Translations under genes and position numbers: made by a program
Part shown: one piece after another, positions 7,473 to 51,653 of the stretch
Position numbering within the stretch: position 1 is the first letter of the stretch
Layout: the number at the start of each line of letters is the position of its first letter
NCBI GenBank assembly: GCA_965232515.1
Contig: CBDDPY010000002.1
Coordinates: 288,001-352,000, forward strand
DNA from: Alphaproteobacteria bacterium
GTDB lineage: Bacteria; Pseudomonadota; Alphaproteobacteria; GCA-2731375
Reading direction: 5' to 3'
Length of the DNA stretch: 64,000 nucleotides
Notes under the pieces: generated by a model
Seen by the model: the letters and a program-made list of their open reading frames with translations, nothing else
What the model was told of the DNA's origin: nothing
Databases searched by the model: none

Positions 7473-7521
7473 ACCTGCCGCATAATTCAGCAACAACGAA
7501 TAAGCCTCGGAGGCGCAAAAG

Positions 7522-8388: not shown

Positions 8389-8405
8389 CAGTAAGAACTC
8401 TGTTG

Positions 8406-8472
8406 GTCATCCTGGCGCAGGCCAGGATCCACTTTGGCCTTCGTCTTGGATGCCGGCCTTCGCCAGCATGAC
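8406..8472. repeat. REP-like inverted doublet, type B (GTCATCCTGGCGCAGGCCAGGATCCA..TGGATGCCGGCCTTCGCCAGCATGAC)
   Basis: GTCAT...ATGAC termini with two internal hairpins, between convergent genes. Confidence 0.75.
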
Positions 8473-8484
8473 AAACCAGCGAAG

Positions 8485-9272: not shown

Positions 9273-9343
9273 GCTGCGTCTCTCCCCGTCGATGCTATGC
9301 TCTAGCCTCGTCGTCAGTGAACCACGCTTTGGAGAGAAACACC

Positions 9344-10216: not shown

Positions 10217-10243
10217 GGGTCCCACGACCCGGACCGACGCGGG

Positions 10244-11761: not shown

Positions 11762-11816
11762 GTCGGTCCAACCACCCGGCAAACGCGACGTCCGAAGACC
11801 GCGTCGGTCGCCCTGA

Positions 11817-11832
11817 GTTAACAGATTATTAA
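11817..11832 (-). promoter_or_regulatory. Perfect CtrA-type box TTAA-N7-TTAAC
   Basis: Plus strand GTTAACAGATTATTAA equals minus strand TTAA-TAATCTG-TTAAC; intergenic, about 200 bp upstream of the hybrid kinase. Confidence 0.6.
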
Positions 11833-12034
11833 ATCCGCATTGTTTATGACCGGGGCCAGTCTTGGCACCGGGGTCGCGCCAGTTCGACATCCATTCAGGA
11901 TGAAGGCCCCGAAGCGTGCGAGAGTCCGGGATAACAGCGTTCTTCTTCCGATCTGAGCCTGTCGCTGCGCTCGGTTTCGGTCTGCCGGTTTCGCATCATC
12001 GGCGCATTCACGGGTCCGTTGGAAAGGTGCGCCC

Positions 12035-14296
12035 GTGAGCGATAGCAGATCGGTAGTCGGCACCGCGCGTCGCGATGCCGTGATCAGCGGCGTCCTCGTC
12101 CTGGCAGCCTTCGCCCTGGCATCTGGCTTTGACTTCCACGAGCGTTGGGACGCCTTCACGGCCGCCCATGAGGCGTGGGAGATTGACGAAATTCCGCTGG
12201 CCTTTGCGCTCACGACGTTTGCTTTCGCCGTCTTTGCATTCCGGCGTTGGCGCGAGGCGCGGCATCAGGGGGCGCGAAGTGTTGCCCTGAATGCCCGTCT
12301 GCGTGTTGAAATTGCTGCGCGTGAGGAAAGCGAGCACCGCTTTCAGGATTTTGCCGAGGCGGGGTCCGATTGGTTCTGGGAGATGGATGCCGAACTTCGG
12401 TTTTCATGGTTTTCGGCGAATATCGAGCAGGCACTGGGAGTCGAGGCGGCGAAGCTCGTTGGCCGCTCGCGCCATGAGCTGAAGGACGCTGGAAATCCGC
12501 CCGAGCAGTGGCGCGCGCATCTGGACACCTTGGCCCGCCGCCAGCCGTTTCGCGATTTCACCTATCAGGTGGCGAACGCCGAATTCGGTCAGGTTTGGGT
12601 GCAGATTAGCGGCGTGCCGGTCTTCGATACGGATGGCGTATTCACCGGATACCGCGGCGTCGGCCGTAATTTGACCGATCTCAAGCAGGCCGAGGCGGCG
12701 CTGCGGCAGCGTGAGGCCGAAGCGACAACCTCCCGTCGGCTGCTGGTCGATGCGATAAACGCCATGACGGATGGTTTCGCCATGTACGACGCCAATGACC
12801 GCTTGGTGCTGTGCAACCAGAAATACAAGGAAATGTACGCCGAGAGCGCCGCCGCGATGATCCCGGGGGCGCGGTTCGAGAGCATCCTGCGCTACGGACT
12901 CGAGCGCGGACAATACGCCGACGCCATCGGCCGCGAAGAGGCATGGCTGGCCGAACGCATGCGCGTGCACCGGACCGGCCGGCAGTCGATCGAGCAGCAG
13001 TTGGCGAACGGCCGCTGGCTGCTGATCAACGAGCGCCGGACCGAGGACGGTGGCTACGTCGGTGTGCGGACCGATCTGACCGAGCTGAAGAAGCGGGACG
13101 AACAGCTCGGCCGCATGCAGCGGCTCGATGCCATCGGCAAGATGACCGGTGGTATCGCGCACGATTTCAACAATCTGTTGGCAATCGTTATCGGCAACTT
13201 CCAGCTCTTACAGCGCGAGCCGGGACAGAGCGACGCGGCCAAGCGTTTCCTGCAAGACGGCTTGGATGCGGCGCTGCGCGGTGCCGAATTGACCCAGCGC
13301 ATGCTGGCGTTCGGCCGGCGTCAGCTCCTGCAGCCAAAGGCCGTCGATATCAACGTCCTGGTCTCCGGCATTGACGCGCTGATGCGGCGAACGATCGGTC
13401 CGATGATCGCGGTCGAAACGCGTCTGGCGGCCGACTTGCCGACCGTGCTGATCGATCCAGGCCAGTTCGAGAACGCCTTGCTCAACCTCGCCCTCAATGC
13501 CCGCGATGCCATGCCGCGGGGCGGCAGGCTGATGATCGAAACTGCGGATGTCGAGCTCACCAAGTCGGATCTCGTCGGGGCCGACGATGTCGATCCCGGC
13601 GCCTACGTCATGCTCGCTGTCACGGATACCGGCAGCGGCATGCCGTCAGCGGTAATCGAGCACGTGTTCGAGCCGTTCTTTACGACCAAGGAAACGGGCA
13701 AGGGGACCGGTCTCGGACTGAGCATGGTCTATGGCTTCGTGAGGCAGTCCCAAGGCCATATCAGCATCGACAGCGAGGTTGGGCGAGGCACGACGGTGCG
13801 GCTCTACTGCCCGCACAACCACACACTGAACGCATCCATTTCCGACCGGCTTGATACCGCGTCCGGCCCGAATGTCGAAGGCGGCAGTGAAACCGTTCTC
13901 GTTGTCGATGACGAGGAGGCGGTTCGCCGCACGGCGCTTAACATGCTGAAGCAACTGGGCTATGCGACCGTAGAGGCCAGCAACGGACAGGAAGCGCTGA
14001 CGCTTCTGCAGGCCCGTCCCGATATCGATCTGCTGCTGACCGACGTGATCATGCCCGGCGGTATGAGCGGCATCGACTTGGCGCAGGCCGCCAAGCGGCG
14101 TGACTTGGCCGTTCTTCTGACGTCGGGTTACAGCGATGAAAGTTTCTCGTATGGCGACGTGGCGATTTCTGACGTGGCTTGGCTGCCCAAACCGTTCCTG
14201 ACACCGCAGCTCGCTCAAAAAGTTCGGCAGGCGCTCGACCGGCGGCCGGATCGTGCCGGGCCGTTTAGTGAGAATGGAGTTGGCGATGCCGGGTAA
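12035..14296 (+). CDS. Hybrid sensor histidine kinase (2 TM, two PAS, HisKA, HATPase, REC)
   Basis: 'SDWFWEMD' PAS, 'GGIAHDFNNLL', 'NLALNARDAMP', 'FEPFFTTK..GKGTGLGL', REC 'LLLTDVIMPGG'. Confidence 0.92.
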   Translation: MSDSRSVVGTARRDAVISGVLVLAAFALASGFDFHERWDAFTAAHEAWEIDEIPLAFALTTFAFAVFAFRRWREARHQGARSVALNARLRVEIAAREESEHRFQDFAEAGSDWFWEMDAELRFSWFSANIEQALGVEAAKLVGRSRHELKDAGNPPEQWRAHLDTLARRQPFRDFTYQVANAEFGQVWVQISGVPVFDTDGVFTGYRGVGRNLTDLKQAEAALRQREAEATTSRRLLVDAINAMTDGFAMYDANDRLVLCNQKYKEMYAESAAAMIPGARFESILRYGLERGQYADAIGREEAWLAERMRVHRTGRQSIEQQLANGRWLLINERRTEDGGYVGVRTDLTELKKRDEQLGRMQRLDAIGKMTGGIAHDFNNLLAIVIGNFQLLQREPGQSDAAKRFLQDGLDAALRGAELTQRMLAFGRRQLLQPKAVDINVLVSGIDALMRRTIGPMIAVETRLAADLPTVLIDPGQFENALLNLALNARDAMPRGGRLMIETADVELTKSDLVGADDVDPGAYVMLAVTDTGSGMPSAVIEHVFEPFFTTKETGKGTGLGLSMVYGFVRQSQGHISIDSEVGRGTTVRLYCPHNHTLNASISDRLDTASGPNVEGGSETVLVVDDEEAVRRTALNMLKQLGYATVEASNGQEALTLLQARPDIDLLLTDVIMPGGMSGIDLAQAAKRRDLAVLLTSGYSDESFSYGDVAISDVAWLPKPFLTPQLAQKVRQALDRRPDRAGPFSENGVGDAG

Positions 14297-34253: not shown

Positions 34254-35483
34254 ATGAAGGCCGAAACGCAGGCCATGGACGGCGCGGCGACGCATCCGTT
34301 TCGCTGGGCGATGCTGGCCGGCGTCTGGCTGATCTATCTCTGTTTCGGGCTGACCATCGCCGCCATGGCGCCAATGGTCGGCACCGTGACGCAGGAACTG
34401 GGCATCAGCAACTCCGCCATGGGCAGCGTGCTCGGCGCCTGGCCGCTGGTCTATATCTTCTCGGCCATTCCCTGCGGCGCGCTGCTGGACCGCATCGGGC
34501 CGCGCTGGGGACTGCTGCTGGCCGCCGTGATCATGGCCGCGTCCGGCGGCCTGCGCGGGCTCGCCGACGGCCATCTCGATCTATTCCTGGCGACCGCGCT
34601 GTTCGGTCTCGGCGGTCCGTTGATCTCGGTCGGCGCGCCCAAGGTGATTGCGCTCTGGTTCGAGGGCAAGGAGCGGGGGCTGGCCATGGGCATTTACATT
34701 ACCGGTCCGGCGCTCGGCGGCATCGCCGCGCTGTCGCTCACCAACAGCGTGGCCATGCCGGCATTCGGCGGCGACTGGCGGCTGGTGCTGGTGGTCTATG
34801 CCGCCGTGGTGCTGATCAGCGCCGCGGTCTGGCTCGGCATCAGCGCGCATCCGGCCGCCCGCGCCGTCGAGCGCGATCTCGCGGCCGCGCCCAGGCGTTC
34901 GCAATTCGCCGTCTTCGCCGACCTGATTGGTCTGCGCAGCGTGCAGATCATGCTGGTGATGGCGGTCGGCATCTTCTTCTTCAACCACTCGATCAGCAAC
35001 TGGCTGCCCGAGATGTTGCGCAGCGGCGGCATGGATGCGCGCAGCGCCGGCTATTGGGCGTCGGTGTCGGTCGCGGCCGCGATTGTCGGCTCGCTGCTGA
35101 TCCCCCGGCTCGCGGTGCCGTCGCGCCGCCTGATCATCATGTTCCTGCTGGTGCTGAGCGCCGGTGTGGCGACCTTGCTGATCCCACAGCCGCCGGGCGC
35201 CCTGCTGGCCACCGGATTGATCCTGCAGGGCATCACCCGCGGCTCGATGATGACCATCGCCATCCTGATCCTGGTCGAGACGCCCGAGGTTGGCGCCCGC
35301 AATGCCGGTTCGGCCGGCGGGCTGTTCTTTTCGGCCGCCGAGATCGGTGGCGTGCTCGGCCCGCTGACCGTCGGCTATCTTTCCGACGTGACGGGCGGCT
35401 TTGGCGCGGCCCTGCATCTGCTGACCGGCATCTGCGCGGCGCTGATGCTGCTCCTCGCCCTGCTGCGACGGCAGCACGGCTAG
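34254..35483 (+). CDS. MFS transporter (CynX/NimT-like)
   Basis: About 12 TM segments; 'GALLDRIGPR', 'WFEGKERGLAMG', 'NWLPEML'. Confidence 0.8.
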   Translation: MKAETQAMDGAATHPFRWAMLAGVWLIYLCFGLTIAAMAPMVGTVTQELGISNSAMGSVLGAWPLVYIFSAIPCGALLDRIGPRWGLLLAAVIMAASGGLRGLADGHLDLFLATALFGLGGPLISVGAPKVIALWFEGKERGLAMGIYITGPALGGIAALSLTNSVAMPAFGGDWRLVLVVYAAVVLISAAVWLGISAHPAARAVERDLAAAPRRSQFAVFADLIGLRSVQIMLVMAVGIFFFNHSISNWLPEMLRSGGMDARSAGYWASVSVAAAIVGSLLIPRLAVPSRRLIIMFLLVLSAGVATLLIPQPPGALLATGLILQGITRGSMMTIAILILVETPEVGARNAGSAGGLFFSAAEIGGVLGPLTVGYLSDVTGGFGAALHLLTGICAALMLLLALLRRQHG

Positions 35484-35487
35484 ATCG

Positions 35488-38400
35488 CTACAGGTTGACG
35501 ACTTCGACGAACACGGGCCGCCGGCGGCTGTCCCGCCCGCGGCTGTCGGTCAGATGCTCCTCGTATTCGGCGATCAACAGGCGGTAGCGGTTCTTCGTCG
35601 CCGGCCGATCCGGCAGCGTGATGCTGCCCTGCCAGATGCTCGGCGGCCGGATCACGTCGAAGATCACCGGATCGCGCAGCACCGCCTTGAAATCGCCCTT
35701 CGCGACCAGCCGCTCGCCGTCGACCTTGGCGCGTTTGATGGCCGTCGCGGTGGGTTTGCGCCGGCCTGTCTCGGTCACCAGCGAGAGTGTGCCCCGGTCC
35801 CGCGTTGGCCGGATATCGGCGACCTTCTGCCAGCCGAGATCGGTACCGATCGTCTCGTTCATTTTCTCCAGCGTCACCTCGATGACGGTCTGGCGCGCCA
35901 CGGTGCTGTTTTCGCGCGAACCTGTGGACTGGCTGTAGCGGTGGCCGAAGACGCCGATCTTGCGCACCAGCGGATTTCGCCGGTCAGGGGTGACGACGAC
36001 GGACCGGTCCGGCGTCAACTGCATGAACTCGGCCAGCACGATCTGCGACAGGTTCATCCGGTAGACCGAAACCGGGTGATAGCGCGCCAGCGCCAGCCGG
36101 ACGAAGGGGTAATAGACCGTGCCGGGCCGGATCACGATGTCGCAGAAATAGAGATCCCGGTCCGCGTCGTAGCCGACCTCGTGCGGCACCACGTCGAGGT
36201 GCAGATTGCCCTGAGCGGCGTCGGGATGCGGCAACTGCGACGTTGGGAAGGGACCCGGCCGCAATTCCAGCTCTTCCGGCGGCATGAAATCGGGCCGGTA
36301 GGGGCCGAGATCGTCGCGGTCCGCGACGCGCAGCGGGAACCGGTTCGGCCGAGGCGCCGCCGTCTTGATCGTCGCCCCGCCCCAGATCGGATCGGTGCCC
36401 CATTGCGTGACGAAGGGCTTGTACGCGCCGTCGATCGCCGTCGTCGAGGCGTTTTCCGGCGGCAGCACGACGCCCAGCATCTCGCCCCAGCCGGATGTGT
36501 ACCAGGGCCGGTCGAGATAGACGCGCAGACCGCCGCCGCCGCGCCAGCTCGTGCGGCCGCCGCGGCCAATCTTGTCGCGGCTCCAGCCGAAGGTCGGCAC
36601 CACGTAAAGCACTTCCGGCGCCGGTGGCTGCGCGGCGTTCGCGGCCCAGACGGTCTGTTCGTCCGAGACCACCTTGATCGCCGCGTTGTCGGGCACCGCC
36701 TTGATGGCTTCCGGCATGTATTCCCGGAACCGGGTCGTGGCCTCGGCGTGATAGGTGATCCGCCGGTAGCGCGTGTCGCCGAACTCGTGTCGTCCCTGCA
36801 CCGACAGGATACCGCTCTCGGCCTCGGTGCGGCGGATCCGGCGCTCGAACGCATGCCCGGCCATGGCCAGGTTTCGCGGCGAGCCGGCGGCGGGCCGGTC
36901 CTGCGGCTCGTTCCACTGCCCCAGCAGGTCCAGCTTCAGCGTGCTCTTGGCATGGATCGGCGTGCGGAAGGTGGGCCGCGCCCAGGTCGCGTTGGCCTGC
37001 CGCGACACCGTCAGAAGGCTGACATCGGGCGTGACCAGCGGCTTCTGCACGGCATGCACCAGTGTCAGCGTGCGCCACGGCGTGAACATCCAGTGCTGGC
37101 CGCGCTCGATGCGCGCGCGCAACGTATCCACCTGATCCGGCGTCAACCCGGCGGTAGCCCATTCCCACAGGCCCATCTGTTCCAGCGCGCCGGCCGGCAG
37201 CAGGCAGCTCAGCCGCAGCTTCGCCACCTCCGCCTTCGGCAGCGGCACGTTCAGCGTGCGCGTGCCGGCGTCGTAGCCCGCTGTCGCCCCGTCCTGCTCG
37301 AAGATATGGATCTTGAAGGGCAGGGCGTCCGGCCAGGGCGAGGCGGCATCGACGAACAGCGCCGGGATCAGGTCGTTCGGGTCCTGGCCTGGCAGATCAA
37401 AGATTCGCGCCACGGCGGCCTCGGCGAACGGATCGGCCAGATACGGCAGGCCGCTCGTTTCCGGCAGCACGGCATAGGTCACCGGCACCAACGGCGATGC
37501 CGGCGTCGGGCCTGGCGTCATGAAGTCGACCGCTTCCAGCACGCCGTCGCGCGTCGACAGCAGTTGGAAGCTCGCCGGATCGAGCTTGCCGCCGGTATCC
37601 AGCATGCTGTGTTGAATAATCTGCGACTGCTTGATGTTGTTCGGCAGGGCCAACCGATCGGCCTGTTCGGCCGCCGGAATGCTGTTGTCGGCCTCGGTCG
37701 CGTTATAGCTGCGGATCGCGACGATGGACATGGACTCGCCCGGCCCCGGCTCCGTCACCGGCGGTCCGTCCTTGATCAGCGCCAGCGCCGGCGCTTCCAC
37801 CGGTTCGAACCGCAGATAGCGCTCGGGATTGCTGGCGGTGTTGGGGGTGCCGATCTCGTCCTCGGTGAAGGGCAGGGAATTGCCGGCCAGATCGACGATG
37901 CGCGCCCGCAGCCGATAGTCCCGGCCGAACCTGAGCGACGGCAGAGAACCGGGATGCGCCTCGAAATTCGCTTCCAGGCCGATGCCGTCCGGCGCCTGGT
38001 TGTCCAGGCTCTTCGGCTGGTCCTCGGGATCGATGGTCAGGCCCGGCATCGGCGCCGACAGGCTCCAGCCGCTCCAGGTGAAGACGCCCTCGTGCAGCTT
38101 GACGATGTCGTCGTTGACGCCGTCCTCGGGCGTGGTGGTGGCGCCCAGACGGACCATGCCCTCTTCGTCCGACGTCTGCAGCAGATCGCTGGTGCGGGTC
38201 AGGCGATAGGCGCCGTCGCGCCGGCACAGGGACTGCCACTGCCCGGTCGTCTTGTCGTGAATGTCGATGCGGAAGCCGCGGATCAGGTCCTCGGCATAGA
38301 CCAGCACATCCTGGTTGCTGTTGGCCTGGTTCTGGAAATCGGCGGCGTTCTGGATCGCCGTTTCCAGCGCGCCGCCGCGGCCCTCCTCGGCCAGTGTCAG

Positions 38401-39582
38401 GCCCGATGTGCGGAGGCTCGGCGCGCCGTCACGGCGAACCTGGTCCTTCTCCTCCTCGGTCGTATTGTCCGACAGCGGCAGGGTGCGCAACGACGCGCCG
38501 AAGCCCAGAGACTTCATCACCATGCCGTCGACATCGACCTGCAACAGCCGGAAGTTGTCGTCGGCCAGCCGCAGCATGCGGCCTTCAATGGGCGTGCTGG
38601 CATTGCGCGGCCGCGGTTCGAAACCGTCCGGCGTCAGGCGCGTGCGCGTGAACGGCAGGATATCCGGATCGGCGACGACGCCGGCGCCCGTGTCGCTCGC
38701 CGGCGCCCAATCGACCTTGACCGACAGCCAATGCTCCGTCGGGCCGGCTGGCAGGGCGCGGCGCGGCACCGTCAGGTCGACCACCAGGCCCAGCAGCCGC
38801 AGCAGCACCGGATACTGGTTCATGGCCGAGACGATCTGGTGGAAGTCGATCAGGTCCTTGAAGTCTTCCGGCTTCGGCATGGCGACCTGCTTGAAGGTCG
38901 ACCATTTTGCGTCTTCCCGCGGGTCGTCCGGACCCTTGTTCTGATAGCTGCTCTGCGCCGGCAGCGACAACGGGGTGTGATAGGCCGAGAACTTCGTCAG
39001 CGGTTCGAACAAGGGTCGGATCGAGGCGAAATTGGACCCCGGGAAGTCCTCCTTGTCGCGCAGGGAGTCGAAATAGCGAAACCCGAACGGCCGTTGCTGT
39101 TTGTGCTCGGTCTGGCCGCGGAAATTGGTGAAGTCCCTGATTTCGCCCAGCAATTGGTTCAGATCGCGTGTCGGCGGCAGCTCGTCATCGGCGGTCTGCA
39201 ACAGGTTGACGTAGAGGTCCTGAAAGGCGTCGTGCAGCTTTGCCAACGGATAGGACACGACCTTGGCGTCCGTCAGGTCCTCGAAATCGTAGGGCCGCAC
39301 GAAGGTCTCGGGCGCGAAGATCGCCCGCCAGACCGTCGGGTCCGGCGCGCTGATTCGGCTGGCCTCGACCGTATCGGCGCCGAAACTGACCTGGAAAGAC
39401 GTGTTCGCCAGCGTTGCCGGCCAGTCCACGAAGTCCGGAAACTGTGCCAGCTCGAACGCGCCGGCCGCCTGGGTCAGCCGCAGGCGCGGCGAGACCAGCA
39501 CGGAGAGCTGCAGCAATTCACCGCCGTCCGACACGCCGTTCGGCAGGCAGGTCCACAGCACTTGTTGGTTCTTGTTTGCCAT
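35488..39582 (-). CDS. Very large uncharacterised protein (1364 aa), Pro/beta-rich with Ig/FnIII-like segments
   Basis: Long ORF with natural protein composition and GC-ending codons; GAGGGGGG RBS formed with the upstream stop; no recognisable catalytic motif or signal peptide. Confidence 0.85.
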   Translation of the reverse strand: MANKNQQVLWTCLPNGVSDGGELLQLSVLVSPRLRLTQAAGAFELAQFPDFVDWPATLANTSFQVSFGADTVEASRISAPDPTVWRAIFAPETFVRPYDFEDLTDAKVVSYPLAKLHDAFQDLYVNLLQTADDELPPTRDLNQLLGEIRDFTNFRGQTEHKQQRPFGFRYFDSLRDKEDFPGSNFASIRPLFEPLTKFSAYHTPLSLPAQSSYQNKGPDDPREDAKWSTFKQVAMPKPEDFKDLIDFHQIVSAMNQYPVLLRLLGLVVDLTVPRRALPAGPTEHWLSVKVDWAPASDTGAGVVADPDILPFTRTRLTPDGFEPRPRNASTPIEGRMLRLADDNFRLLQVDVDGMVMKSLGFGASLRTLPLSDNTTEEEKDQVRRDGAPSLRTSGLTLAEEGRGGALETAIQNAADFQNQANSNQDVLVYAEDLIRGFRIDIHDKTTGQWQSLCRRDGAYRLTRTSDLLQTSDEEGMVRLGATTTPEDGVNDDIVKLHEGVFTWSGWSLSAPMPGLTIDPEDQPKSLDNQAPDGIGLEANFEAHPGSLPSLRFGRDYRLRARIVDLAGNSLPFTEDEIGTPNTASNPERYLRFEPVEAPALALIKDGPPVTEPGPGESMSIVAIRSYNATEADNSIPAAEQADRLALPNNIKQSQIIQHSMLDTGGKLDPASFQLLSTRDGVLEAVDFMTPGPTPASPLVPVTYAVLPETSGLPYLADPFAEAAVARIFDLPGQDPNDLIPALFVDAASPWPDALPFKIHIFEQDGATAGYDAGTRTLNVPLPKAEVAKLRLSCLLPAGALEQMGLWEWATAGLTPDQVDTLRARIERGQHWMFTPWRTLTLVHAVQKPLVTPDVSLLTVSRQANATWARPTFRTPIHAKSTLKLDLLGQWNEPQDRPAAGSPRNLAMAGHAFERRIRRTEAESGILSVQGRHEFGDTRYRRITYHAEATTRFREYMPEAIKAVPDNAAIKVVSDEQTVWAANAAQPPAPEVLYVVPTFGWSRDKIGRGGRTSWRGGGGLRVYLDRPWYTSGWGEMLGVVLPPENASTTAIDGAYKPFVTQWGTDPIWGGATIKTAAPRPNRFPLRVADRDDLGPYRPDFMPPEELELRPGPFPTSQLPHPDAAQGNLHLDVVPHEVGYDADRDLYFCDIVIRPGTVYYPFVRLALARYHPVSVYRMNLSQIVLAEFMQLTPDRSVVVTPDRRNPLVRKIGVFGHRYSQSTGSRENSTVARQTVIEVTLEKMNETIGTDLGWQKVADIRPTRDRGTLSLVTETGRRKPTATAIKRAKVDGERLVAKGDFKAVLRDPVIFDVIRPPSIWQGSITLPDRPATKNRYRLLIAEYEEHLTDSRGRDSRRRPVFVEVVNL

Positions 39583-39592
39583 GCCGCCCCCC

Positions 39593-42500
39593 TCAGGCGA
39601 ACGCCGCGCAGTAACGCTGCCAGGTGGCGGCGTCCGGAATGAGCTCGATGAAGCGCGGATCGGCGTTCGAGCCGGCGAACTTGCGTTCGACCTTGACCGT
39701 GACCGAGGTGCTGAAGAACAGGATCTCGATCTCGACCTTCAGCGAGGCCTGGCCGCGCAGTTCCGATTTCTGGTTCGCCTTGTGATAGCTGAGCGACAGG
39801 TGGAAGGTCAGCGACACCGAGATCAGGCCCAGCACCGACAGCTCGCCGCCCATCTCGACGAAGCCCTCGAACAGCACGGATTCATCCGGGCCCTGCACCT
39901 GCCAGCGGAAATAGAAGCCGGCCTTCACATAGACGCCGCCCGACGCGACGCCGAGATTGATCGAGATCGAGGCGCCGAACTCGAACTGGGCTTCGACAAG
40001 CTCGACGCCTTCGGATGAGATGCCGAGCCCGAAGAAGCCGCCGCCGCCGAACAGCGAGACCGTCAGGTTGAAGGTGTTGTGCCGTTCGCCGAAGTTGAAC
40101 CGGACGACCGCCTTCTGGCCGGTGAACGGCAGCTCGAACCCGGCGCCCAGCGAGATGTTCTGCAACGCCGCGATGCCGACCGCCACGTCTGGCAGGCTCA
40201 GCGCGTAGCTCGCCTTCAGCCCGGTCGGCGAGATCGCCAGGTCGGGCGGATCGGAGAAGCCGTTGCTGGGGATGAACTTGCGCAGCTCGTTCACGAACTC
40301 CAACGGCCCGCCGAACGTGACCGCGTCGACGGGATCGAGATTGACGTCGACGTCGGGCTTCTTGCCGGCCTCGACCGAGAACACCAGTTCCCGGAACCAG
40401 ATGTGCACGAAGCCGAACAGGTTGATCTTAAAGTTCGTCAGCTTGGCGTCGGTGAAGCTCTGTGGCGCGCCCGGCGTGCCTGTGGGATCGATGGGCGTCA
40501 CCACTTTCGAGGTCAGGTCCAGCACGCTGGTGCCGCCGGCATTGGCGACGAACAGCGGCTTGCCGCCGTCGCCCAGATCGTCGCGGTACCAGCGGTAGCG
40601 CGCTTCGATCTTGTCCGGCAGCTCGAAGGTCTTGAGCTGCGGCACACTGCTGTCGCCGGTGGCGAACGAAATCAGCGAGAACAGATCTCCCAGGCTGACC
40701 CCGCCCAGGATGGTGACGTCCTTCAGCGCCGCCAGCGGGTCGAAGTCGCCGCCCGCGAAGGTGCCGACATCGCCGGCCACCGTGCCGAAGCTGCGCGACA
40801 GGCCGGAGATATCCATGTTCGGCGCGATGAAGCCGCCGACCTTGTCGCTCGTGTTGCCGGCGCCGAATGTCAGGGGCAGGGCGTTCGACAGCTCCAGGAA
40901 GATTTGGCCGGGATTGCTCGGCCCGAATTCGTCGTTCAGATAGCCCTGGAAGAACTTGACGGCGACGGTCTGGCCCTGGCCCAGCAGCCGGTCGAGCGAG
41001 CCGACATTGACGTCGGCTTCGTCGAACGCGGGATAGAATTGCGGCCGGTTGCTCGGCACCGAACCCGCCGGCTTCGCGCCCAGGAACGAGACGGCCTGCG
41101 TCGCGAAGGTGGTGTCGCCCTCGCTGTCGCCGGCGACCTCCTGGCTGGCGTAGCGGACGGTGGCGCCGCCCAAATCGGCCTTGCGCAGATCGGCCTTGGC
41201 GGCAAACGCGTCGGCCACGTCGTCGACGCCGGCCGGGATCTTGTTGACGATCTCCGACATGAAGATCAGCGGCATGGCGAAGGCGATCCGGTTGCCCGCC
41301 TTGTCCGTCGCCAACAGGTCGAACTTGAAGAAGTCGCCGCTGACCCGCGGCCAGAACGCCATGCGGCGTTTGATGCCGTTGTAACTGAGGTGCGGTTCCA
41401 GGCCGCTGGCGCCGACGCCGGGTTGCGCCAGGTTCGGCGTGACCTTGGTCAGCACCTCGACTTTCTCGAAGGGGAAATCGAGCGCGCCGTAAGCCTGCTT
41501 CGGGCCGGGATAGGTTTTCACCGGCTCGCGCACGACGATGAAGTAGCGCTGCCGCAGATAGGCCGCCCGGCCGGCGTTCTGCGGCATGTTTTGGAACTTG
41601 CGCTCGGTCACCTTGACCAGCGAGGCGGCGTGGCCGAAGGGATAGAGGAACCCGGCATAGATCACACGGACGTAGTAGTCGCGGGCCATGGCCGCCCGGT
41701 GCGTCCAAGATTCCAGATCGACCGCTTCCGGCCGGATGTTCCAATTGCCCTCGCTGTCGAGCCAGCCGCCGAGCGTGCTCAGCATCAGGCGTTTGGCCTG
41801 CGTCGGCTTCGGCGTGTACGCCGTGTTGCCGCCGGTCGGATTCGCCAGGTCCTGGCCCCAGTCGGCCGTCAACTGCACCAGCATCTTGCGGTCGAGTTGG
41901 GTCAGCGACATGCGGAACGGCACCTGCCCGTCGCTGGGATTGGGGTTCGGATAGTCGGGCGACCAGATTGCCCGCAGCATCGGCCGCGCCGGCCCGTCCT
42001 CGATCACCTCGCCGTCGTCCTTGCGGCCGAGCCGCGTGTGCCACAGCTCGGTGCGGTTCGCGTGCGCGACCGGCAGGTCGCTGTGCGTAAAGCCCGCCGG
42101 CTGGATCGGCGATTGGATCAGGCGATAGGGCAACTCGATCGCGGTGACGTGCTTCGGCGGCTCGTGCGGTGTCAGGATCAGCGGCAGCAGCGGCACGACG
42201 GACAGGTCGATGGCGTCGACCTCGAAACGGCCCGCCGTGACCTCGGTTGCCACGCGGCTGGCCACCTCAAGCTCGAGCAGCGACCGCGCACGGCTTTTAT
42301 CGGTATCGTCGAGACCACCCGGCAGGCCACGCAGGCCGGCAGACAGCTCCCGTTCGACAAGCGTGTTGATCGTCTTCGCATCGATGGCGCCCCGACCGGC
42401 CGAGAGTTGCTTCACGACGGCGTCGGCAACCCGGCCGCCGGCGCGGGTCATCAGTGTGCCGAGCTCCGCCGCGTCCGACGTCGTCAGGTCGCTGCGGATC

Positions 42501-43114
42501 TTTTCGAATGCCGGTTGCAGGAATGTCGACGATGCGACGCTCAGCAGGCTCTCGATCCGGAATCGTCGGCCGCTGTCGTCGGAGAAACCGGGCGGCAATG
42601 GTGCGGCCGTCCAGTCCAGGCTCAGCGGCCAGGTGCGGCAGGCGGCCAGCAGCGCGTCCAGCGTATAGGGGACCTCGCTCACCTGCATCGGCATAACGAC
42701 GACCAGCCGGCTGCGGCCGGCCATGCGCGTCTTCGCCAGCGCCGGTGGCGTCGGCAGGTTCTCCGACGGCTCGTCCGGCAGATCCGTATTGCCGACTTCA
42801 GGCGCTTCTTCCAGGAAGGCTTCGTCGGCAATGGCCTGCGGCGGAAACTCGACAATCAGCCGGGATGGACGCGACGGGTTCTTGCGCACCAGCTTCGGCG
42901 GGCCCGACGTGTCCAGGTCCATATTGTTGAAGATGAAGTCCAGCACCAGCAGGTCGTCGGCGCGGACGATGCGCTTGCGAAACTCCTGCGGGGTGACGAA
43001 GACGTCGCTGAAATCGAACAGCGTACTGCGGTCGAGGATCGGTGTGATGCGGCGGGCCGAAATCGTACGACCACCGCGCCGCATGGAAACGACCACACGC
43101 CTGGAATCCGCCAT
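39593..43114 (-). CDS. Very large uncharacterised protein (1173 aa) with a C-terminal amphipathic beta-strand region (DUF6603-like by recollection)
   Basis: AGGGGGG RBS; C-terminal alternating hydrophobic, Gly-rich strands ending 'WQRYCAAFA'; no signal peptide. Confidence 0.85.
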   Translation of the reverse strand: MADSRRVVVSMRRGGRTISARRITPILDRSTLFDFSDVFVTPQEFRKRIVRADDLLVLDFIFNNMDLDTSGPPKLVRKNPSRPSRLIVEFPPQAIADEAFLEEAPEVGNTDLPDEPSENLPTPPALAKTRMAGRSRLVVVMPMQVSEVPYTLDALLAACRTWPLSLDWTAAPLPPGFSDDSGRRFRIESLLSVASSTFLQPAFEKIRSDLTTSDAAELGTLMTRAGGRVADAVVKQLSAGRGAIDAKTINTLVERELSAGLRGLPGGLDDTDKSRARSLLELEVASRVATEVTAGRFEVDAIDLSVVPLLPLILTPHEPPKHVTAIELPYRLIQSPIQPAGFTHSDLPVAHANRTELWHTRLGRKDDGEVIEDGPARPMLRAIWSPDYPNPNPSDGQVPFRMSLTQLDRKMLVQLTADWGQDLANPTGGNTAYTPKPTQAKRLMLSTLGGWLDSEGNWNIRPEAVDLESWTHRAAMARDYYVRVIYAGFLYPFGHAASLVKVTERKFQNMPQNAGRAAYLRQRYFIVVREPVKTYPGPKQAYGALDFPFEKVEVLTKVTPNLAQPGVGASGLEPHLSYNGIKRRMAFWPRVSGDFFKFDLLATDKAGNRIAFAMPLIFMSEIVNKIPAGVDDVADAFAAKADLRKADLGGATVRYASQEVAGDSEGDTTFATQAVSFLGAKPAGSVPSNRPQFYPAFDEADVNVGSLDRLLGQGQTVAVKFFQGYLNDEFGPSNPGQIFLELSNALPLTFGAGNTSDKVGGFIAPNMDISGLSRSFGTVAGDVGTFAGGDFDPLAALKDVTILGGVSLGDLFSLISFATGDSSVPQLKTFELPDKIEARYRWYRDDLGDGGKPLFVANAGGTSVLDLTSKVVTPIDPTGTPGAPQSFTDAKLTNFKINLFGFVHIWFRELVFSVEAGKKPDVDVNLDPVDAVTFGGPLEFVNELRKFIPSNGFSDPPDLAISPTGLKASYALSLPDVAVGIAALQNISLGAGFELPFTGQKAVVRFNFGERHNTFNLTVSLFGGGGFFGLGISSEGVELVEAQFEFGASISINLGVASGGVYVKAGFYFRWQVQGPDESVLFEGFVEMGGELSVLGLISVSLTFHLSLSYHKANQKSELRGQASLKVEIEILFFSTSVTVKVERKFAGSNADPRFIELIPDAATWQRYCAAFA

Positions 43115-43263
43115 TACGCGCCCCCCTGTTGTTGTCGTTGGTCGTTCGGCAGGACCTAGACGAGGGAAAAAATCCCACCAAACGACACTAAAAGCCTAGC
43201 GCGGGGTGCGTTTCAGGGCCGAGGGACCATTCTGTGACCGCCATCAAGGGCGGCCGGCGGTGG

Positions 43264-44265
43264 TCAGCCCGTGCGGATAAATTTCTGGAAGGCGTGGCAG
43301 GTCAGCGGCGCGAAATGATCGATCGCACCCGATGCCTTTACCACTTCGCCGACATAAAGATCGCCGCGCGAGTCCGCCCAGATACCGTGCGGCGCGATGA
43401 AGTTGCCCGGCAGCACCGGGTTGTAGCCGCCGAACCGCGTCTGGATGTTGCCGTCCAGATCGCAGATCGTCACGCGCGCGATCGGCTCGTGTCCGATCGG
43501 CGGGCAATGCATCATGCAGAAGTGCGGCCGGTCCGTCGGCACCGGCGTCGACCAGCCCAGCTCGGCGATATAGAGGTTCTCCTGCTCGTCGATGAACAGG
43601 TCGTCTGGCCGGCTGACCCAGTCCCAGGTCGTGATCAGCGCGCCGTCGGCCGAGAAGATCTGGATGCGTGAATTCTCGCGGTCGGCCACGAAGACCCGGT
43701 TCGACCGGTCGACGGCGATGGCGTGCGGCAGGTTGAACTCGCCCGGACCGCTGCCCGGCTGGCCCCAGGACGCCAGCAACTGCCCGTCGGCTGAAAACCG
43801 GTGCACGCGCGCGTTGCCGTAGCCGTCGGCGATGAACATCTCGCCGTTGGCGCCGGTCGCGACGTTCGTCACCATGTTGAACGGGCCCGACGAATACTGC
43901 ACCGGCGAGACGCCTTCCTTGAAACCGGTGTTGGCGGGCTCGTTCGGCTCGCCCAGCGTCATCAGCAATTCGCCGTCGGTGGTGAACTTGCGCACCGTGT
44001 GGTCGAAATTGTCGGCGCAATAGATGTTGTCGTCGCGGTCGATGAAGATGCCGTGCGCGTTGGTGAAAATGTCCTCGCCCCAGGCATTGAGGAACTGGCC
44101 TTCCTTGTCGAATACGATGACCGGATGGTCGCCGCGGTTGAACACATAGACCCGGTCCTGCGAGTCGACCGCGACGCCGGCCACTTCCACGAACGACCAG
44201 CCCTCGGGCAGCTGCTCCCAGCCCTCCAGTACCTCGTATTCCAGCCTGTGCTCGCCCCACGCCAT
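43264..44265 (-). CDS. NHL-repeat beta-propeller, peptidyl-alpha-hydroxyglycine alpha-amidating lyase (PAL)-like
   Basis: NHL repeats 'GVAVDSQDRVYV', 'HGIFID', 'ADGYGNARV', 'FNLPHAIAVD', 'VADRENSRIQIF'. Confidence 0.85.
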   Translation of the reverse strand: MAWGEHRLEYEVLEGWEQLPEGWSFVEVAGVAVDSQDRVYVFNRGDHPVIVFDKEGQFLNAWGEDIFTNAHGIFIDRDDNIYCADNFDHTVRKFTTDGELLMTLGEPNEPANTGFKEGVSPVQYSSGPFNMVTNVATGANGEMFIADGYGNARVHRFSADGQLLASWGQPGSGPGEFNLPHAIAVDRSNRVFVADRENSRIQIFSADGALITTWDWVSRPDDLFIDEQENLYIAELGWSTPVPTDRPHFCMMHCPPIGHEPIARVTICDLDGNIQTRFGGYNPVLPGNFIAPHGIWADSRGDLYVGEVVKASGAIDHFAPLTCHAFQKFIRTG

Positions 44266-44300
44266 GGTTCGTCCCTCCCGTTCGGTCGCGGTTATTGTTG

Positions 44301-45188
44301 TTACGCCACCTGCACCTCGGTCACGCCGGCGTCCACGTCCGACACCGTGGTGCGATGCATCACGCGGCGGTGTTGTGAATTCCAGGGCTTGCCGCGGTGC
44401 ATGACGCTGCGGTTGTCCCAGATCACCAGGTCGCCGGCGCGCCATTTGTGGCTGTAGACGAAGCGGTCCTGCACGCACCATTCGTTGATCCGCCGCAGCA
44501 ACGCCCGGCTCTTGTCGATGTCCCAACCCAGGATGTGCGAAGCGTGGCTGCCGACATAGAAGCTCCTGCGGCCCGTCACCGGATGCGTGCGGATCAGCTT
44601 CTGCCGCACCGGCGGCATGGCGCGCTTCTCGTCGTCGCTAAAAATGTCGCCGACGATCAGGCTGCGGGAATAGACGATCGAATGCTCGCAGATGCAGTTG
44701 TCCAGATCCGCCTTGGCGATGCCGTCGGTCTCGTCGGGCCAGGCGTCATAGGCGGCGCGCGCGTCGGCGAACTCGGTCTCGCCGCCCTCGGGCGGCACCT
44801 CGCGGCCCGACAGGATCGAATACATCGCCGGCACCGGCTTGAACGAGCTGTCGATATGCCAGAGCTGGTTGCCCTTCATGTAGGTCGCGTGCGCGTCGTC
44901 GGCGGCCAGCAGCTTGTCGCCGTCGCCCACGTTCGAAAGGCGCGTTACCTGGCCGTGCACGCCGCCATACTGGTCGCGCGGCAGCGGCACCTCCAGCGGC
45001 CCGAAGCGCTCGGTGAAGTCGACCTGCTGCTGGTCGCTCAGGCGCTGGTCGCGGAACAGCAGCACGGCGTGCTCCGCCGCGGCCCGCGCGATCGCATCGA
45101 ATGTGGCGTCGTTGAGCGGCCGGCTCAGATCGATGCCGCCGATCTCGGCGGCGAAGACGGGTGTCAGTCTGGTTTGCTCGATCGTCAT
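44301..45188 (-). CDS. TauD/TfdA family Fe(II)/2-oxoglutarate dioxygenase (TfdA-like)
   Basis: 'GNQLWHIDSSF', 'GGETEFADARAAYD', 'WDNRSVMHRG', 'RVMHRTT'. Confidence 0.9.
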   Translation of the reverse strand: MTIEQTRLTPVFAAEIGGIDLSRPLNDATFDAIARAAAEHAVLLFRDQRLSDQQQVDFTERFGPLEVPLPRDQYGGVHGQVTRLSNVGDGDKLLAADDAHATYMKGNQLWHIDSSFKPVPAMYSILSGREVPPEGGETEFADARAAYDAWPDETDGIAKADLDNCICEHSIVYSRSLIVGDIFSDDEKRAMPPVRQKLIRTHPVTGRRSFYVGSHASHILGWDIDKSRALLRRINEWCVQDRFVYSHKWRAGDLVIWDNRSVMHRGKPWNSQHRRVMHRTTVSDVDAGVTEVQVA

Positions 45189-50280: not shown

Positions 50281-50471
50281 CGCTTTAACGCCGATCTCAA
50301 CGACAAGAATCAAGAGGGCATCAGCGGCGTACGACGGCAGTTTCCGGCGGGAGTGATCCTCTCTGCATTCCCGCCGGGGCTGTCTTTTGCAGTCTGTCCA
50401 ACAATTCCGACAACAATTGCGGCTAGACTGGGCCGATGGTGGGTCGCCGATCGCGCAAGGGGAGGCATGTC

Positions 50472-51653
50472 ATGCGGCGCCGGTTTCACGTTACGATCGT
50501 TTCCACCTGCCTGGTGGGGTTTCTGGCGCCGGCGTCACTGTCGGCGCAAGGCAACCTGGGCGATCTTCTGCAAAAGCAATTGAAAGGCGCGCCGGGCGAC
50601 GCGGATGACGGCGCCAAGGGCGGCTTCGACCTGCAGGCGCTGCAGTCGCAGATCCAGCAGCTTCAACGGCAATTGACGGCGAGCGAAGGCGAAGTTGGCA
50701 GGCTCAATGGCGATGTTTCGAGCCTGACGGGCGCGCTCGATCGGTCGAAGGCCGAAAACCAATCGCTGACCGGCTTGCTCGGCCAGAAGGACGGCGAGCT
50801 GTCGGCGAGCCTCGGCCGCATCGGCGACCTGTCCAAGGCGCTCGACGCCAGCGAGTCCGAGAACGTCTCGTTGATCGATCAAATCGGCCTGAAGGACAAC
50901 GAGCTGTCCGCCAGCCTCGGCCGCATTGCCGACCTGCGCGATCAGCTGACGACGGCCTCCGCGGCGCTGGCGGCGAGCGAAGCTGAAAACGGCGGTTTGC
51001 TGGCGCGGTTGACGGCGGCGCAGGATGCGTTGGCCAGCCGGGAAGGCGAGATGTCGGGCCTGTCCGCCCAGATCGCGCAATTGACGGACAGCGTTGCCGG
51101 CAGCGAAACCAAGATCGGCGGATTGCTCGCCGATCTCGAGAGCATGCGGTCGCAGCTCGCCAGCCGCGCGGCCGATGTTGTCCGGCTGACGGACAGCCTG
51201 CGGTCGAGCGAGCAATCCGGCCTGCGGTTGAGCGAGAAGCTCGCCGCCGCCACGGCCGCGCTCGGCGAGCGTGACCGGGCATTGGCGGATGCCGGTGGCG
51301 AGAAGGCGGTTCTGATCCGCCAGCTGGCGGCGGCCGACACTGTTGTGCAGACCTGGGAAGCCAAGCTGACGGATGCGGACGCTGCCCTGGAAGAGCGCGA
51401 CCGCACCATCGTCGAACGGACCTCGCAGCTGGCGGCGGCCGAAACGGCGCTGTCCCAATCGGAGGCCGAGCTGGCCGCCGCGTTGACCGATCTGGAACGA
51501 ACGCAGACCGAGCGTCAGGACCTTTCGGACCTGAACGGCCGGCAGGCGGCACGGGTCGAAACGCTGACGCTGCAGCGAAACTTCGGGTTCGGCCTCTTTG
51601 TGCTCAGCTTGATCGGCATGTTCTTCTTCTGGCGCCGCGGCAGGTCGGTCTGA
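50472..51653 (+). CDS. Exported coiled-coil protein with a C-terminal membrane anchor
   Basis: GGAGG RBS; signal peptide; long heptad region with a 35-aa tandem repeat; ends 'FGFGLFVLSLIGMFFFWRRGRSV'. Confidence 0.75.
   Translation: MRRRFHVTIVSTCLVGFLAPASLSAQGNLGDLLQKQLKGAPGDADDGAKGGFDLQALQSQIQQLQRQLTASEGEVGRLNGDVSSLTGALDRSKAENQSLTGLLGQKDGELSASLGRIGDLSKALDASESENVSLIDQIGLKDNELSASLGRIADLRDQLTTASAALAASEAENGGLLARLTAAQDALASREGEMSGLSAQIAQLTDSVAGSETKIGGLLADLESMRSQLASRAADVVRLTDSLRSSEQSGLRLSEKLAAATAALGERDRALADAGGEKAVLIRQLAAADTVVQTWEAKLTDADAALEERDRTIVERTSQLAAAETALSQSEAELAAALTDLERTQTERQDLSDLNGRQAARVETLTLQRNFGFGLFVLSLIGMFFFWRRGRSV

Follow-up and report, generated by a model that had tools for sequence, protein, structure and literature searches.

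Analysis of the 64,000-nucleotide stretch of DNA studied here (the window) showed that a 1173-aa protein (protein A) ends in a domain, residues about 880–1173 (39596..40477, minus strand), which is predicted from AlphaFold models to be an open, edge-exposed antiparallel meander with a curvature like that of a 16–22-strand barrel wall, making up roughly half a barrel. Domain searches, alignment and modelling identified this region as the defining domain of a large superfamily of proteins that lack annotation, while protein A and the 1364-aa product of the adjacent gene (protein B) together make up a self-contained, horizontally mobile two-gene unit in which B is translationally linked. Our tentative preference is to read the domain as a shielded hydrophobic half-barrel that would engage a membrane as a membrane-inserting, pore-forming or anchoring module, and not as a BAM-assembled OMP.

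Gene A (39593..43114, minus strand; no family assignment), defined by its open reading frame and translation, was accepted as real because its codon-position GC (0.64/0.45/0.89) is similar to that of the neighbouring genes and 1073 homologues of its product were found. A run of six G, 7–12 nt upstream of the start ATG (43121..43126, minus strand, as read from the sequence), is likely its ribosome-binding site. RNA-seq contigs from two runs of one study, representing a relative 90–99% identical, covered 24 and 12 of 30 bins, with DNA carry-over as a possible source of this coverage; two poly-A raw-read runs, which carry no weight here, gave 0 reads. That the protein carries no export signal, as the original prediction held, was borne out: the N-terminus (MADSRRVVVSMRRGGR...) has neither a hydrophobic core nor a Sec signal peptide, a hydrophobic helix that might anchor it in the membrane is absent, and no alternative start is available to supply a signal peptide, the first start codon after the preceding stop being already in use in an open frame of 1200 codons. 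Nor does protein A resemble a Tat substrate, in which an S/T-R-R-x-hydrophobic motif precedes an uncharged hydrophobic stretch and AxA: its SRRVVVSM leads into RRGGR and lacks such a stretch. Among 121 homologues of A, seven reach the 19-residue hydrophobicity threshold (1.9), and the six windows listed for them fall either within the C-terminal strand LSVLGLISVSLTF... or around residue 298; when only residues 1–70 are considered, the hydrophobic threshold is reached by two of the 121, each of them Tat-type.

Gene B (35488..39582, minus strand) encodes the obligate partner, likewise without family assignment, and was defined by its translation and 1031 homologues. The 10-nt A–B junction (39583..39592, minus strand), read directly from the sequence, runs from TGA through GGGGGGCGGC to ATG, and this G-rich spacer resembles a ribosome-binding site. 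The two genes are adjacent, tightly spaced and on the same strand in 78 of 80 loci, and the pair spans no fewer than 12 phyla, its hosts including Bacillus, Streptomyces, cyanobacteria and Caulobacterales, with each protein conserved at about 40–45% identity. No homology between A and B was detectable, and protein B lacks an amphipathic beta region comparable to that of A. The pair has no third conserved gene (the biggest cluster of flanking genes occurs at 7 of 80 loci), and an upstream NHL-repeat ORF, considered as a third component, was set aside as it has a relative near the pair in just 2 of the 80. The flanks were heterogeneous (140 ORFs of 35 loci, from 164 ORFs in 41 eligible loci) and offered no functional clue; neighbours of the PIN, SIR2, DUF559 and integrase kinds were only scattered and PADLOC was silent on both A and B, and a defence-island reading of these loci is not supported. 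The strictly linked partner gene and the unannotated state of the whole family, which we consider the most telling context, are both points beyond the original prediction.

The span 39593–40450 corresponds to residues 889–1173 of protein A plus the stop codon. For this span a C-terminal run of amphipathic strands had been predicted, capped by a short helix, and all seven quoted strings were present in the translation: NFKINLFGFVHIWFRELVF (894–912), QNISLGAGFELPF (985–997), FNLTVSLFGGGGFFGLGI (1015–1032), FEFGASISINLGVASGGVYVKAGFYF (1044–1069), GFVEMGGELSVLGLISVSLTFHLSLSY (1084–1110), GQASLKVEIEILFFSTSVTVKVERKF (1121–1146) and WQRYCAAFA (1165–1173). The long amphipathic strands form a meander at residues 1015–1147 (39674..40072, minus strand), delimited by DSSP on the models, face hydrophobicity, shuffles and superposition, with strands assigned by DSSP on the models at 1015–1019, 1022–1033, 1036–1053, 1057–1072, 1079–1094, 1098–1113, 1116–1131 and 1134–1147 (all minus strand). 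The period-2 hydrophobic moment over this region was 1.37 against 0.73 ± 0.11 in shuffles (z 6.1; equalled by 0 of 2000), and the family-averaged moments peaked at residues 961–1140 (1.0–1.5, against a protein A mean of 0.72). In the family average, one face of the seven long strands had Kyte-Doolittle values of +2.0 to +2.8 and the other −0.9 to −2.0, the hydrophobic face being unbroken over 13–15 consecutive strand positions, while the polar face carries invariant charged residues. The GGGGF motif at residues 1023–1027 (40034..40048, minus strand) was invariant in 121/121 and 80/80 aligned sequences and served as one of the two peptide queries by which 372 genome loci were recovered. Beside the sheet lie two conserved helices: residues 936–947 (40274..40309, minus strand; the GGPLEFVN...IP region, helical by DSSP), where G935, G936, L938, F940, N942 and P949 are invariant in the alignment, and the terminal helix containing WQRYCAAFA (residues 1162–1173; 39596..39631, minus strand), assigned by DSSP at 1162–1172 as had been anticipated, in which W1165 and Y1168 are invariant and conservation reaches 90% or more at C1169, A1171, F1172 and A1173.

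When the domain alone was searched, 3439 representative proteins were matched, and it lay at the C-terminal end in each of the 150 listed host proteins (316–1731 aa) and again in P0270 (2952 aa), the one giant relative chosen for alignment. The seven other giants are 2302–3187 aa long.

Conservation of the sheet bears directly on the main competing explanation, namely that the sheet is purely structural, a layer of a soluble core whose hydrophobic face is always packed on the beta-rich domains of A or on B, so that its barrel likeness would reflect generic meander geometry. Conservation is higher on the hydrophobic face than on the polar face (the top residue has a mean frequency of 0.68 and 0.58, respectively), and the hydrophobic face includes invariant Gly and Ala residues (G1024, G1026, A1057, G1059, G1090, G1121, A1123), a combination that suits tight packing against protein better than contact with lipid. 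At one end of the sheet three turns (LGV, LGL, LF) are hydrophobic too, as they would be where the sheet meets another domain. Mean column identity across the domain was 54% (80 sequences, many phyla), a very high cross-phylum conservation that also favours a structural role; membrane barrels are usually far less conserved than this. Further in line with a packed sheet, the full-length AlphaFold model of protein A is compact (pLDDT 82.7, pTM 0.72), no transmembrane helix or signal is present in protein A, the Bacillus copy or protein B, and the strict A–B pairing suggests a stable complex. However, the domain modelled alone keeps its open sheet and does so with higher confidence than within the full model (pLDDT 85.5, against blocks of about 75–87), and on geometric grounds the accessory strands and helices, with 110 residues, could not cover seven 16-residue strands. 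Ending very different hosts, of 1000–3200 aa, would also be odd for a core-packing element. We consider a structural, buried sheet possible and nearly as likely as the membrane-engaging half-barrel.

Two independent AlphaFold runs, one on the full-length protein and one on the domain alone, converged on one open antiparallel meander, in which DSSP assigned strands of 12–18 residues, turns of 2–6 residues at both ends and the terminal helix. In residues 104–295 of the domain model there are 14 DSSP strand segments, seven of them 12–18 residues long, and the sheet is accompanied by a four-strand subdomain as well as the conserved helices. VIA-align was used to search 48,161 chains with the full and with the domain model, together with a re-check on Foldseek's 996 best chains, and in each of these three structure searches all 50 of the top 50 rows were membrane beta-barrels, with no soluble folds among them, which tells against the structural sheet; VIA-align's own caution that a middling Z can reflect a common arrangement speaks in its favour. 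The 22-strand barrel 5t3r_D matched with a Z of 12.2 and an rmsd of 2.5 Å over 178 residues, about half of its wall, and 8ypu_C, also of 22 strands, superposed at 2.5 Å over 178 residues. CymA (4d5b_A) had the highest Z (13.4), but with an rmsd of 6.4 Å over 190 residues, while 16–18-strand porins fitted at 3.6–4.4 Å and 12–14-strand barrels poorly, at 6–8.5 Å. VIA-align aligned at most about 196 of the 319 residues of the domain model at low rmsd. Foldseek gave no indication of a closed single-chain barrel in the predicted monomer (whole-domain TM ≤0.33, rmsd ≥16 Å), and with the full A model it found nothing above TM 0.33 in the PDB and the viral BFVD. Taken together, the fit to large barrels and the whole-domain TM of at most 0.33 describe the model as an open sheet with barrel-wall curvature. 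Neither outcome that the original prediction had named as telling against it was seen: the models show no closed soluble sandwich, with Foldseek TM at most 0.33 and only barrel walls matched by VIA-align, and there is no alternative start to supply a signal peptide. Predicted as a complex, two copies of the domain gave a score of 0.00, a value obtained with the partner's own fold uncertain and with no controls, which speaks neither for nor against self-association.

The same searches weigh on the possibility that the sheet is a groove for a hydrophobic ligand or lipid, in which the concave side, closed by the two helices, would hold acyl chains or cargo in the manner of LolA/LolB half-barrels or AsmA/TamB/VPS13 grooves. 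In its favour are an unbroken hydrophobic face and an open sheet; the conserved amphipathic helices 936–947 and 1162–1172 could serve as lids, and the invariant small residues could make room for a ligand. Nevertheless, AsmA, TamB, LolA, LptA and VPS13-like chains were absent from the best 50 matches of each structure search, although such chains may rank below these, and the 2.5 Å fit to barrel walls suggests a curvature across the strands, unlike a taco in which each strand is bent. In contrast to AsmA/TamB/YhdP/VPS13 proteins, the A family has no family HMM match (Pfam AsmA or DUF490) and no N-terminal membrane anchor, and no lipid-metabolism genes recur in its neighbourhood. A groove is quite improbable in our assessment. 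Of the suggestion that the region is a groove or pore domain, the barrel or pore geometry was retained, whereas the groove fits less well with only barrel walls among the best 50; the proposed likeness to tacos (AsmA/TamB/VPS13) and to pore-former stems found no backing, neither appearing among the best 50 structure matches.

With the walls of large OMP barrels (the SusC/TonB-dependent transporters 5t3r_D and 8ypu_C, CymA 4d5b_A and porins), the A domain shares a next-neighbour antiparallel meander of long tilted strands and a strict hydrophobic/polar alternation. It differs from them in being open, with short turns at both ends, a 26-residue tail and no Sec signal, and in being highly conserved, present in monoderms too and without sequence similarity to these barrels. 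An ordinary OMP barrel or autotransporter translocator, that is, a BAM-inserted domain with the N-terminal 880 residues as passenger, could be argued from the retrieval of outer-membrane barrels only, including AIDA-I, BrkA, EspP, Hbp and NalP at Z 10–11.7, and from the C-terminal position of the domain in each host whose match position was seen. However, protein A lacks both a Sec signal and an alternative start, and such signals as exist, in one clade, are Tat-type. OMPs carry their beta-signal in a final strand that closes the chain with an aromatic residue, while in protein A the last strand (1134–1147) stops at 1147 and is followed by 26 residues (1148–1173) with a helix, the chain ending in ...CAAFA. 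The 12-strand autotransporter barrels fit poorly (rmsd 7.5–8.5 Å), the model leaves the sheet open, and Pfam yielded neither an autotransporter nor an OMP family. Bacillus megaplasmids carry the A–B pair, and the domain also occurs in Actinomycetota and on plasmids of Streptomyces, all of them bacteria without an outer membrane. The ordinary OMP reading is highly improbable and close to refuted, in agreement with the earlier expectation that a conventional OMP was unlikely, to which the 26-residue tail and the homologous pairs in Bacillus and Streptomyces now add weight.

Type V autotransporters and two-partner secretion systems offer a further parallel, as they have a C-terminal beta domain of about 280–300 residues after a long variable N-terminal part, as in A, and FhaC, CdiB and autotransporter barrels were among the structure matches to A (Z 10–12.9). 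Unlike type V systems, A lacks a Sec signal, a closed barrel of 12 or 16 strands and any POTRA or autotransporter match in Pfam, and unlike in two-partner secretion the partner, B, lacks an amphipathic beta region. Beta pore formers (the aerolysin and haemolysin families and gasdermins) are soluble, have no transmembrane helices and possess amphipathic hairpins able to line a barrel, and the bacterial gasdermins, which have no signal peptide, act from the cytoplasm. Subunits of aerolysin, haemolysin and gasdermin give 1–2 hairpins each to a many-subunit barrel, whereas the A domain would be a preformed sheet with 14 DSSP strand segments in the model and has no Pfam match; pore-former folds were absent from the best 50 of each structure search.

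Searches for relatives of A and B at the level of families were uniformly sparse. Pfam, NCBIfam, PADLOC and PHROGs returned 0 matches for A and for B (for A, 0 Pfam families at E ≤1), and no Pfam family scored above threshold in 27 A homologues, 30 longer or shorter relatives, 8 giants and 34 B homologues, with the sole exception of a Peptidase_S8 fusion (P0217). PDB sequence profiles gave nothing meaningful for A, the domain or B: profile A1 had 0 matches at E ≤1, profile A2 one chance-level match (E 1.3), and B a single match (E 0.58). The ESM Atlas returned unnamed clusters and, as leads only, DUF6603 for the domain (0.82) and a PG_binding_1 cluster for B (0.76); the latter was dropped, with 0 of 34 B homologues matching in Pfam. 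In hhalign, the domain aligned with the second half of DUF6603 (PF20248) at a probability of 78.5% (E 1.7e-5, 203 columns, 12 sequences), a value that depends on the alignment used (38% with 4 sequences, 48.8% with full proteins). Both share similar glycine-rich hairpin motifs, and DUF6603 hosts, at about 1100–1650 aa, are comparable in size and lie beside Pfam-less giant ORFs, DUF6603 being the core of uncharacterised giant-protein cassettes, but DUF6603 proteins continue for 125–250 or more residues after the domain. The DUF6603 HMM had no match in A, its 27 homologues, its own genome or 5 A-carrying genomes, the A and B HMMs found nothing in six DUF6603 loci, and hhalign probabilities between B and the DUF6603 neighbours were all below 1%. 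On sequence grounds a remote kinship between the A domain and DUF6603 is possible. No paper on DUF6603 was found in the searched library, and nothing relevant on half-barrel, amphipathic, signal-less proteins appeared among the papers listed there. The A–B pair matches no described family.

Our searches further revealed an uneven distribution. The A–B pair was absent from all 60 relatives that were searched (0/60), domain matches occurred on 16 plasmid records (7 of them Bacillus and 2 Streptomyces), a Bacillus tropicus plasmid carries an annotated A–B pair, Bacillus megaplasmids have A–B pairs, and 4 Actinomycetota loci were found, so that the domain is not confined to outer-membrane bacteria. 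Phyla were intermixed on the family tree, and this, together with the absence from the 60 relatives and the plasmid records, indicates an accessory, mobile distribution. A phage origin was also considered and rejected, as 50,697 phage records contained no match. Tat-type signals (xRxTRR, a hydrophobic stretch and AxA) were present at 10 of 68 genome loci, all within a 25-row alphaproteobacterial clade, and in 5 of 121 metagenome homologues of A, while most family members, including the window protein and the Bacillus copy, have no signal of any kind. At least those Tat-bearing orthologues would act outside the cytoplasm. The expectation of a cytoplasmic or non-classically exported protein has to be qualified in view of this orthologue clade. 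Tat exports folded proteins, hence the sheet must be shielded in the soluble state, and this need for a folded, soluble form in one clade is also what a purely structural sheet would predict.

For the membrane-engaging half-barrel, the following course may be envisaged. A soluble A or A–B particle would keep the hydrophobic face shielded until a trigger, or export, allowed the half-barrel to engage the lipid bilayer, where its free edge strands could complete a barrel with a second copy or a partner, or else anchor the complex; membrane contact, oligomer and the role of B are all inferred here. A more specific form, which we regard as unlikely, is that A and B constitute a self-contained two-protein membrane-perforating system, in which A would be a cytoplasmic giant without a signal and two or more of its preformed half-barrels would merge along their edges to give a barrel of great width after a trigger sensed or relayed by B. 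The perforated membrane could be that of the own cell (regulated death, anti-phage abortive infection) or, in the Tat clade, that of the envelope or a target cell. If true, a perforating A–B pair would represent a route of beta-barrel insertion without BAM and without the many-subunit hairpin mechanism.

Without a family match or literature found, A (1173 aa) and B (1364 aa) constitute a sizeable piece of functional dark matter, in which no part other than the C-terminal domain has a shape that can be recognised: half a barrel wall on a protein without a Sec signal. The Tat-bearing clade, which occurs in culturable Caulobacter and Asticcacaulis strains, provides a direct experimental handle on the question that the family poses, namely whether a preformed half-barrel enters a membrane without BAM or barrel-wall geometry has been reused as a soluble scaffold. 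Either outcome would be new for beta-sheet architecture.

Gene A is a 1173-aa open reading frame on the reverse strand of the window (39593–43114), and its codon-position GC (0.64/0.45/0.89) is that expected of genuine genes in a window of 66% GC. The original prediction concerned a C-terminal run of amphipathic β-strands (39593–40450, reverse strand; residues 889–1173 plus the stop codon) in a protein lacking an export signal, and every peptide that it quoted was found in the translation. The ORF opens at the first start codon past an in-frame stop, with a six-G run 7–12 nt 5' of the ATG, and since the open frame comprises only 1200 codons, an alternative start adding a signal peptide is impossible. 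Two forward-strand ORFs antisense to the partner gene B and to A (35554–39642, 1362 aa, and 40079–43159, 1026 aa, respectively) were rejected as genes by our codon-position GC filter (GC3 > 0.8 and > GC2); mirror ORFs of this kind are typical of high-GC DNA.

The period-2 hydrophobic moment of A residues 1015–1147, the long-strand meander, was 1.37 against 0.73 ± 0.11 for shuffled sequences (z 6.1; 0/2000 as high), and the amphipathic pattern there exceeds chance. The family-averaged moment was maximal at residues 961–1140 (121 homologues), while the same analysis found no region of comparable amphipathic β moment in B. AlphaFold2 models of whole A (121 sequences; pLDDT 82.7, pTM 0.72) and of residues 855–1173 (80 sequences; pLDDT 85.5, pTM 0.67) agree in secondary structure: four strands at residues 864–926, a conserved helix at 936–947, several short strands at 960–1019, seven strands of 12–18 residues with 2–6-residue turns at 1022–1147, and a terminal helix at 1162–1172. 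The seven long strands have average Kyte-Doolittle values of +2.0 to +2.8 on one face and −0.9 to −2.0 on the other. That the domain (residues about 880–1173) serves as a ligand groove we consider improbable, and the lipid-transfer taco, an alternative in the original prediction, is not favoured by the data.

VIA-align searches of both models against a set of 48,161 representative chains gave membrane β-barrels in all of the best 50 rows, for whole A as for the domain model, and the best 50 rows from a re-examination of Foldseek's 996 best chains were again membrane β-barrels. The highest Z (13.4) was obtained with CymA (4d5b_A; rmsd 6.4 Å, 190 residues, domain model), and the closest geometric match of the domain model was with large barrels: 2.5 Å over 178 residues for both the SusC-type barrel 5t3r_D (Z 12.2) and 8ypu_C, about 3–4 Å for TonB-dependent receptors and 3.6–4.4 Å for 16–18-strand porins, compared with 6–8.5 Å for 12–14-strand barrels. 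Extending the barrel alignments into the domain's first 95 residues gave rmsd values of 9–17 Å. Because the best fits fell on large barrels and the Foldseek whole-domain TM was ≤ 0.33, the domain is modelled as an open, half-barrel-like sheet, in which DSSP assigns 14 strand segments (domain-model residues 104–295), with a small accessory subdomain, the sheet having the predicted curvature of half of a 16–22-strand barrel wall. The AlphaFold2 models thus show an open sheet rather than a closed soluble β-sandwich; on the same TM values the predicted monomer is not a closed barrel either, and we regard a conventional membrane barrel as very improbable.

Conservation of the domain is unusually high (mean column identity 54% in 80 sequences from many phyla). 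In an alignment of 147 more divergent representatives, conservation was higher on the hydrophobic face than on the polar face (0.68 vs 0.58), with invariant small residues on the former (G1024, G1026, A1057, G1059, G1090, G1121, A1123) and invariant E1041, E1045, G1066 and Y1068 on the latter; the sheet turns are hydrophobic at one end (LGV, LGL, LF) and polar at the opposite end. The conservation, small residues and hydrophobic turns speak for tight protein packing in at least one state, and are the strongest point against reading the hydrophobic face as a simple lipid-facing surface. They also favour a permanently buried structural sheet, a reading that we hold to be a real if doubtful possibility.

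Homologues of A numbered 1073 (E ≤ 0.001), nearly all full length, 41–49% identical and all without a name; searches with A, 27 homologues and the A and domain profiles gave no match in Pfam, NCBIfam, PADLOC, PHROGs or PDB sequences. The domain alone retrieved 3439 representative proteins (1438 at E ≤ 1e-30) and was C-terminal in 150/150 of the matches listed, in host proteins of 316–1731 aa. It was also matched in eight proteins of 2300–3200 aa, and in P0270, the single one of these very large proteins that was aligned, its position is C-terminal. One relative (P0217, 1720 aa) carries an N-terminal subtilase, Peptidase_S8 (residues 231–523, 128.8 bits), and was the sole protein of 30 scanned domain relatives with an above-threshold Pfam match.

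B (35488–39582, reverse strand) is a 1364-aa ORF beginning ten nucleotides past the A stop, the junction reading A TGA, then GGGGGGCGGC, then B ATG. B is as unannotated as A: it had no relative in the PDB, and none of 34 B homologues matched Pfam. No homology between B and A was detected. B homologues (n=1031) match those of A in count, and B lies downstream of A on the same strand in 78/80 genome loci, the remaining two stopping at a contig edge. There is no third conserved gene, the largest flank cluster covering 7/80 loci and the flanking ORFs being heterogeneous (140 ORFs, 35 loci). In the window, the 3' end of B is convergent with an MFS transporter gene, and directly upstream of A lies an NHL/β-propeller-repeat ORF (43264–44526, reverse strand; Pfam NHL E 3.4e-18), with a gap of about 150 nt, containing a T-run, between the two; with a relative near the pair in only 2/80 loci, it is probably unrelated to the A-B cassette. 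For a 405-aa ORF (50436–51653, forward strand), Pfam gave numerous coiled-coil-type matches that were weak and below threshold (Lebercilin, DUF7491, Spectrin, others); its product is probably a coiled-coil protein. Two RNA-seq libraries of a single study (X5 and X15) yielded short contigs that were 90–99% identical to window positions 35000–44600 and span much of A, B and the NHL ORF, which does not in itself prove transcription; a close relative with the cassette is present in these samples.

Scanning 185,579 species genomes by pattern gave 372 loci, and the 80 retained for locus comparison and tree represent 12 phylum-level groups, with record titles including Alpha-, Beta-, Gamma- and 'Delta'-proteobacteria, Acidobacteriota, Gemmatimonadota, Actinomycetota, Cyanobacteria, Verrucomicrobiota, Planctomycetota and Nitrospirota, among others. 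On the domain FastTree, phylum labels require 20 changes where 11 would be the minimum, and several well-supported clades contain mixed phyla; this mixing is suggestive only, the bins possibly being contaminated. The pair is single-copy in its own genome (7.39 Mb), and a search of 60 relatives (1 of the same genus, 31 of the same family and 28 of the same class) found it in none. Sixteen plasmid records carry the domain (7 Bacillus cereus-group, 2 Streptomyces, 2 Cupriavidus, 2 Rhizobium, others), and it was found on no phage records. The Bacillus tropicus 404-kb megaplasmid pBEMB20-1 carries the pair (6637–14282; 1093 aa + 1434 aa, both annotated 'hypothetical protein') amid genes for two HNH endonucleases, an NTP pyrophosphohydrolase, one protein with a helicase domain and one with an HD domain; the C-terminal domain of A is also matched on six more Bacillus plasmid records. 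Because the family is present in monoderm bacteria, a dedicated outer-membrane role is ruled out; the data exclude an ordinary outer-membrane protein, which the original prediction had already taken to fit less well.

The ESM Atlas lead for the domain was DUF6603 (PF20248), at a sub-threshold score. The Pfam model matched neither A, its homologues, its own genome nor five A-carrying genomes, the A and B HMMs had no matches in six DUF6603 loci, and B resembled none of the DUF6603 neighbour proteins. Profile-profile probability was 38% with 4 sequences, 78.5% with 12 DUF6603 domain sequences (E 1.7e-5, 203 columns) and 48.8% with full proteins; a remote shared origin of the two β-meanders is possible but unproven. 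The DUF6603 proteins (L094–L099, 1106–1560 aa) stand in operon-like rows with Pfam-less ORFs of 830–1759 aa, and in L094 a Trypsin_2/NAL1_N protease gene adjoins the DUF6603 gene. The fold type is already known; of the family, the A-B pair and their context, the libraries and literature searched held no description.

The absence of an export signal was confirmed in the window protein, where SRRVVVSM is similar to the start of a Tat motif and the hydrophobic core is absent; the Bacillus copy has no signal, nor has the conserved N-terminus of B. A textbook Tat signal (xRxTRR, then an uncharged hydrophobic stretch, then AxA) was present in 5/121 metagenome homologues and in 10 of the 68 genome loci whose upstream frame is complete (L015, L019, L023, L024, L027, L029, L032, L047, L048, L053), all ten inside a 25-row alphaproteobacterial clade (Asticcacaulis, Caulobacter, Marinicaulis, Parvularculaceae). 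That most family members lack any signal is a further point for the buried sheet. The exclusive barrel-wall geometry, full-length hydrophobic face and short turns, as well as the C-terminal position on every placeable host, the existence of a Tat clade and the family's accessory distribution, favour a shielded half-barrel that would engage a membrane or complete a barrel, which is our tentative first choice; this reading and the buried sheet lie close to one another, and the remaining probability belongs to explanations outside the four considered. Within the Tat-bearing clade A is probably exported in a folded state, and across the family this giant protein appears to be an exported one in certain lineages but to stay in the cytoplasm in the rest.
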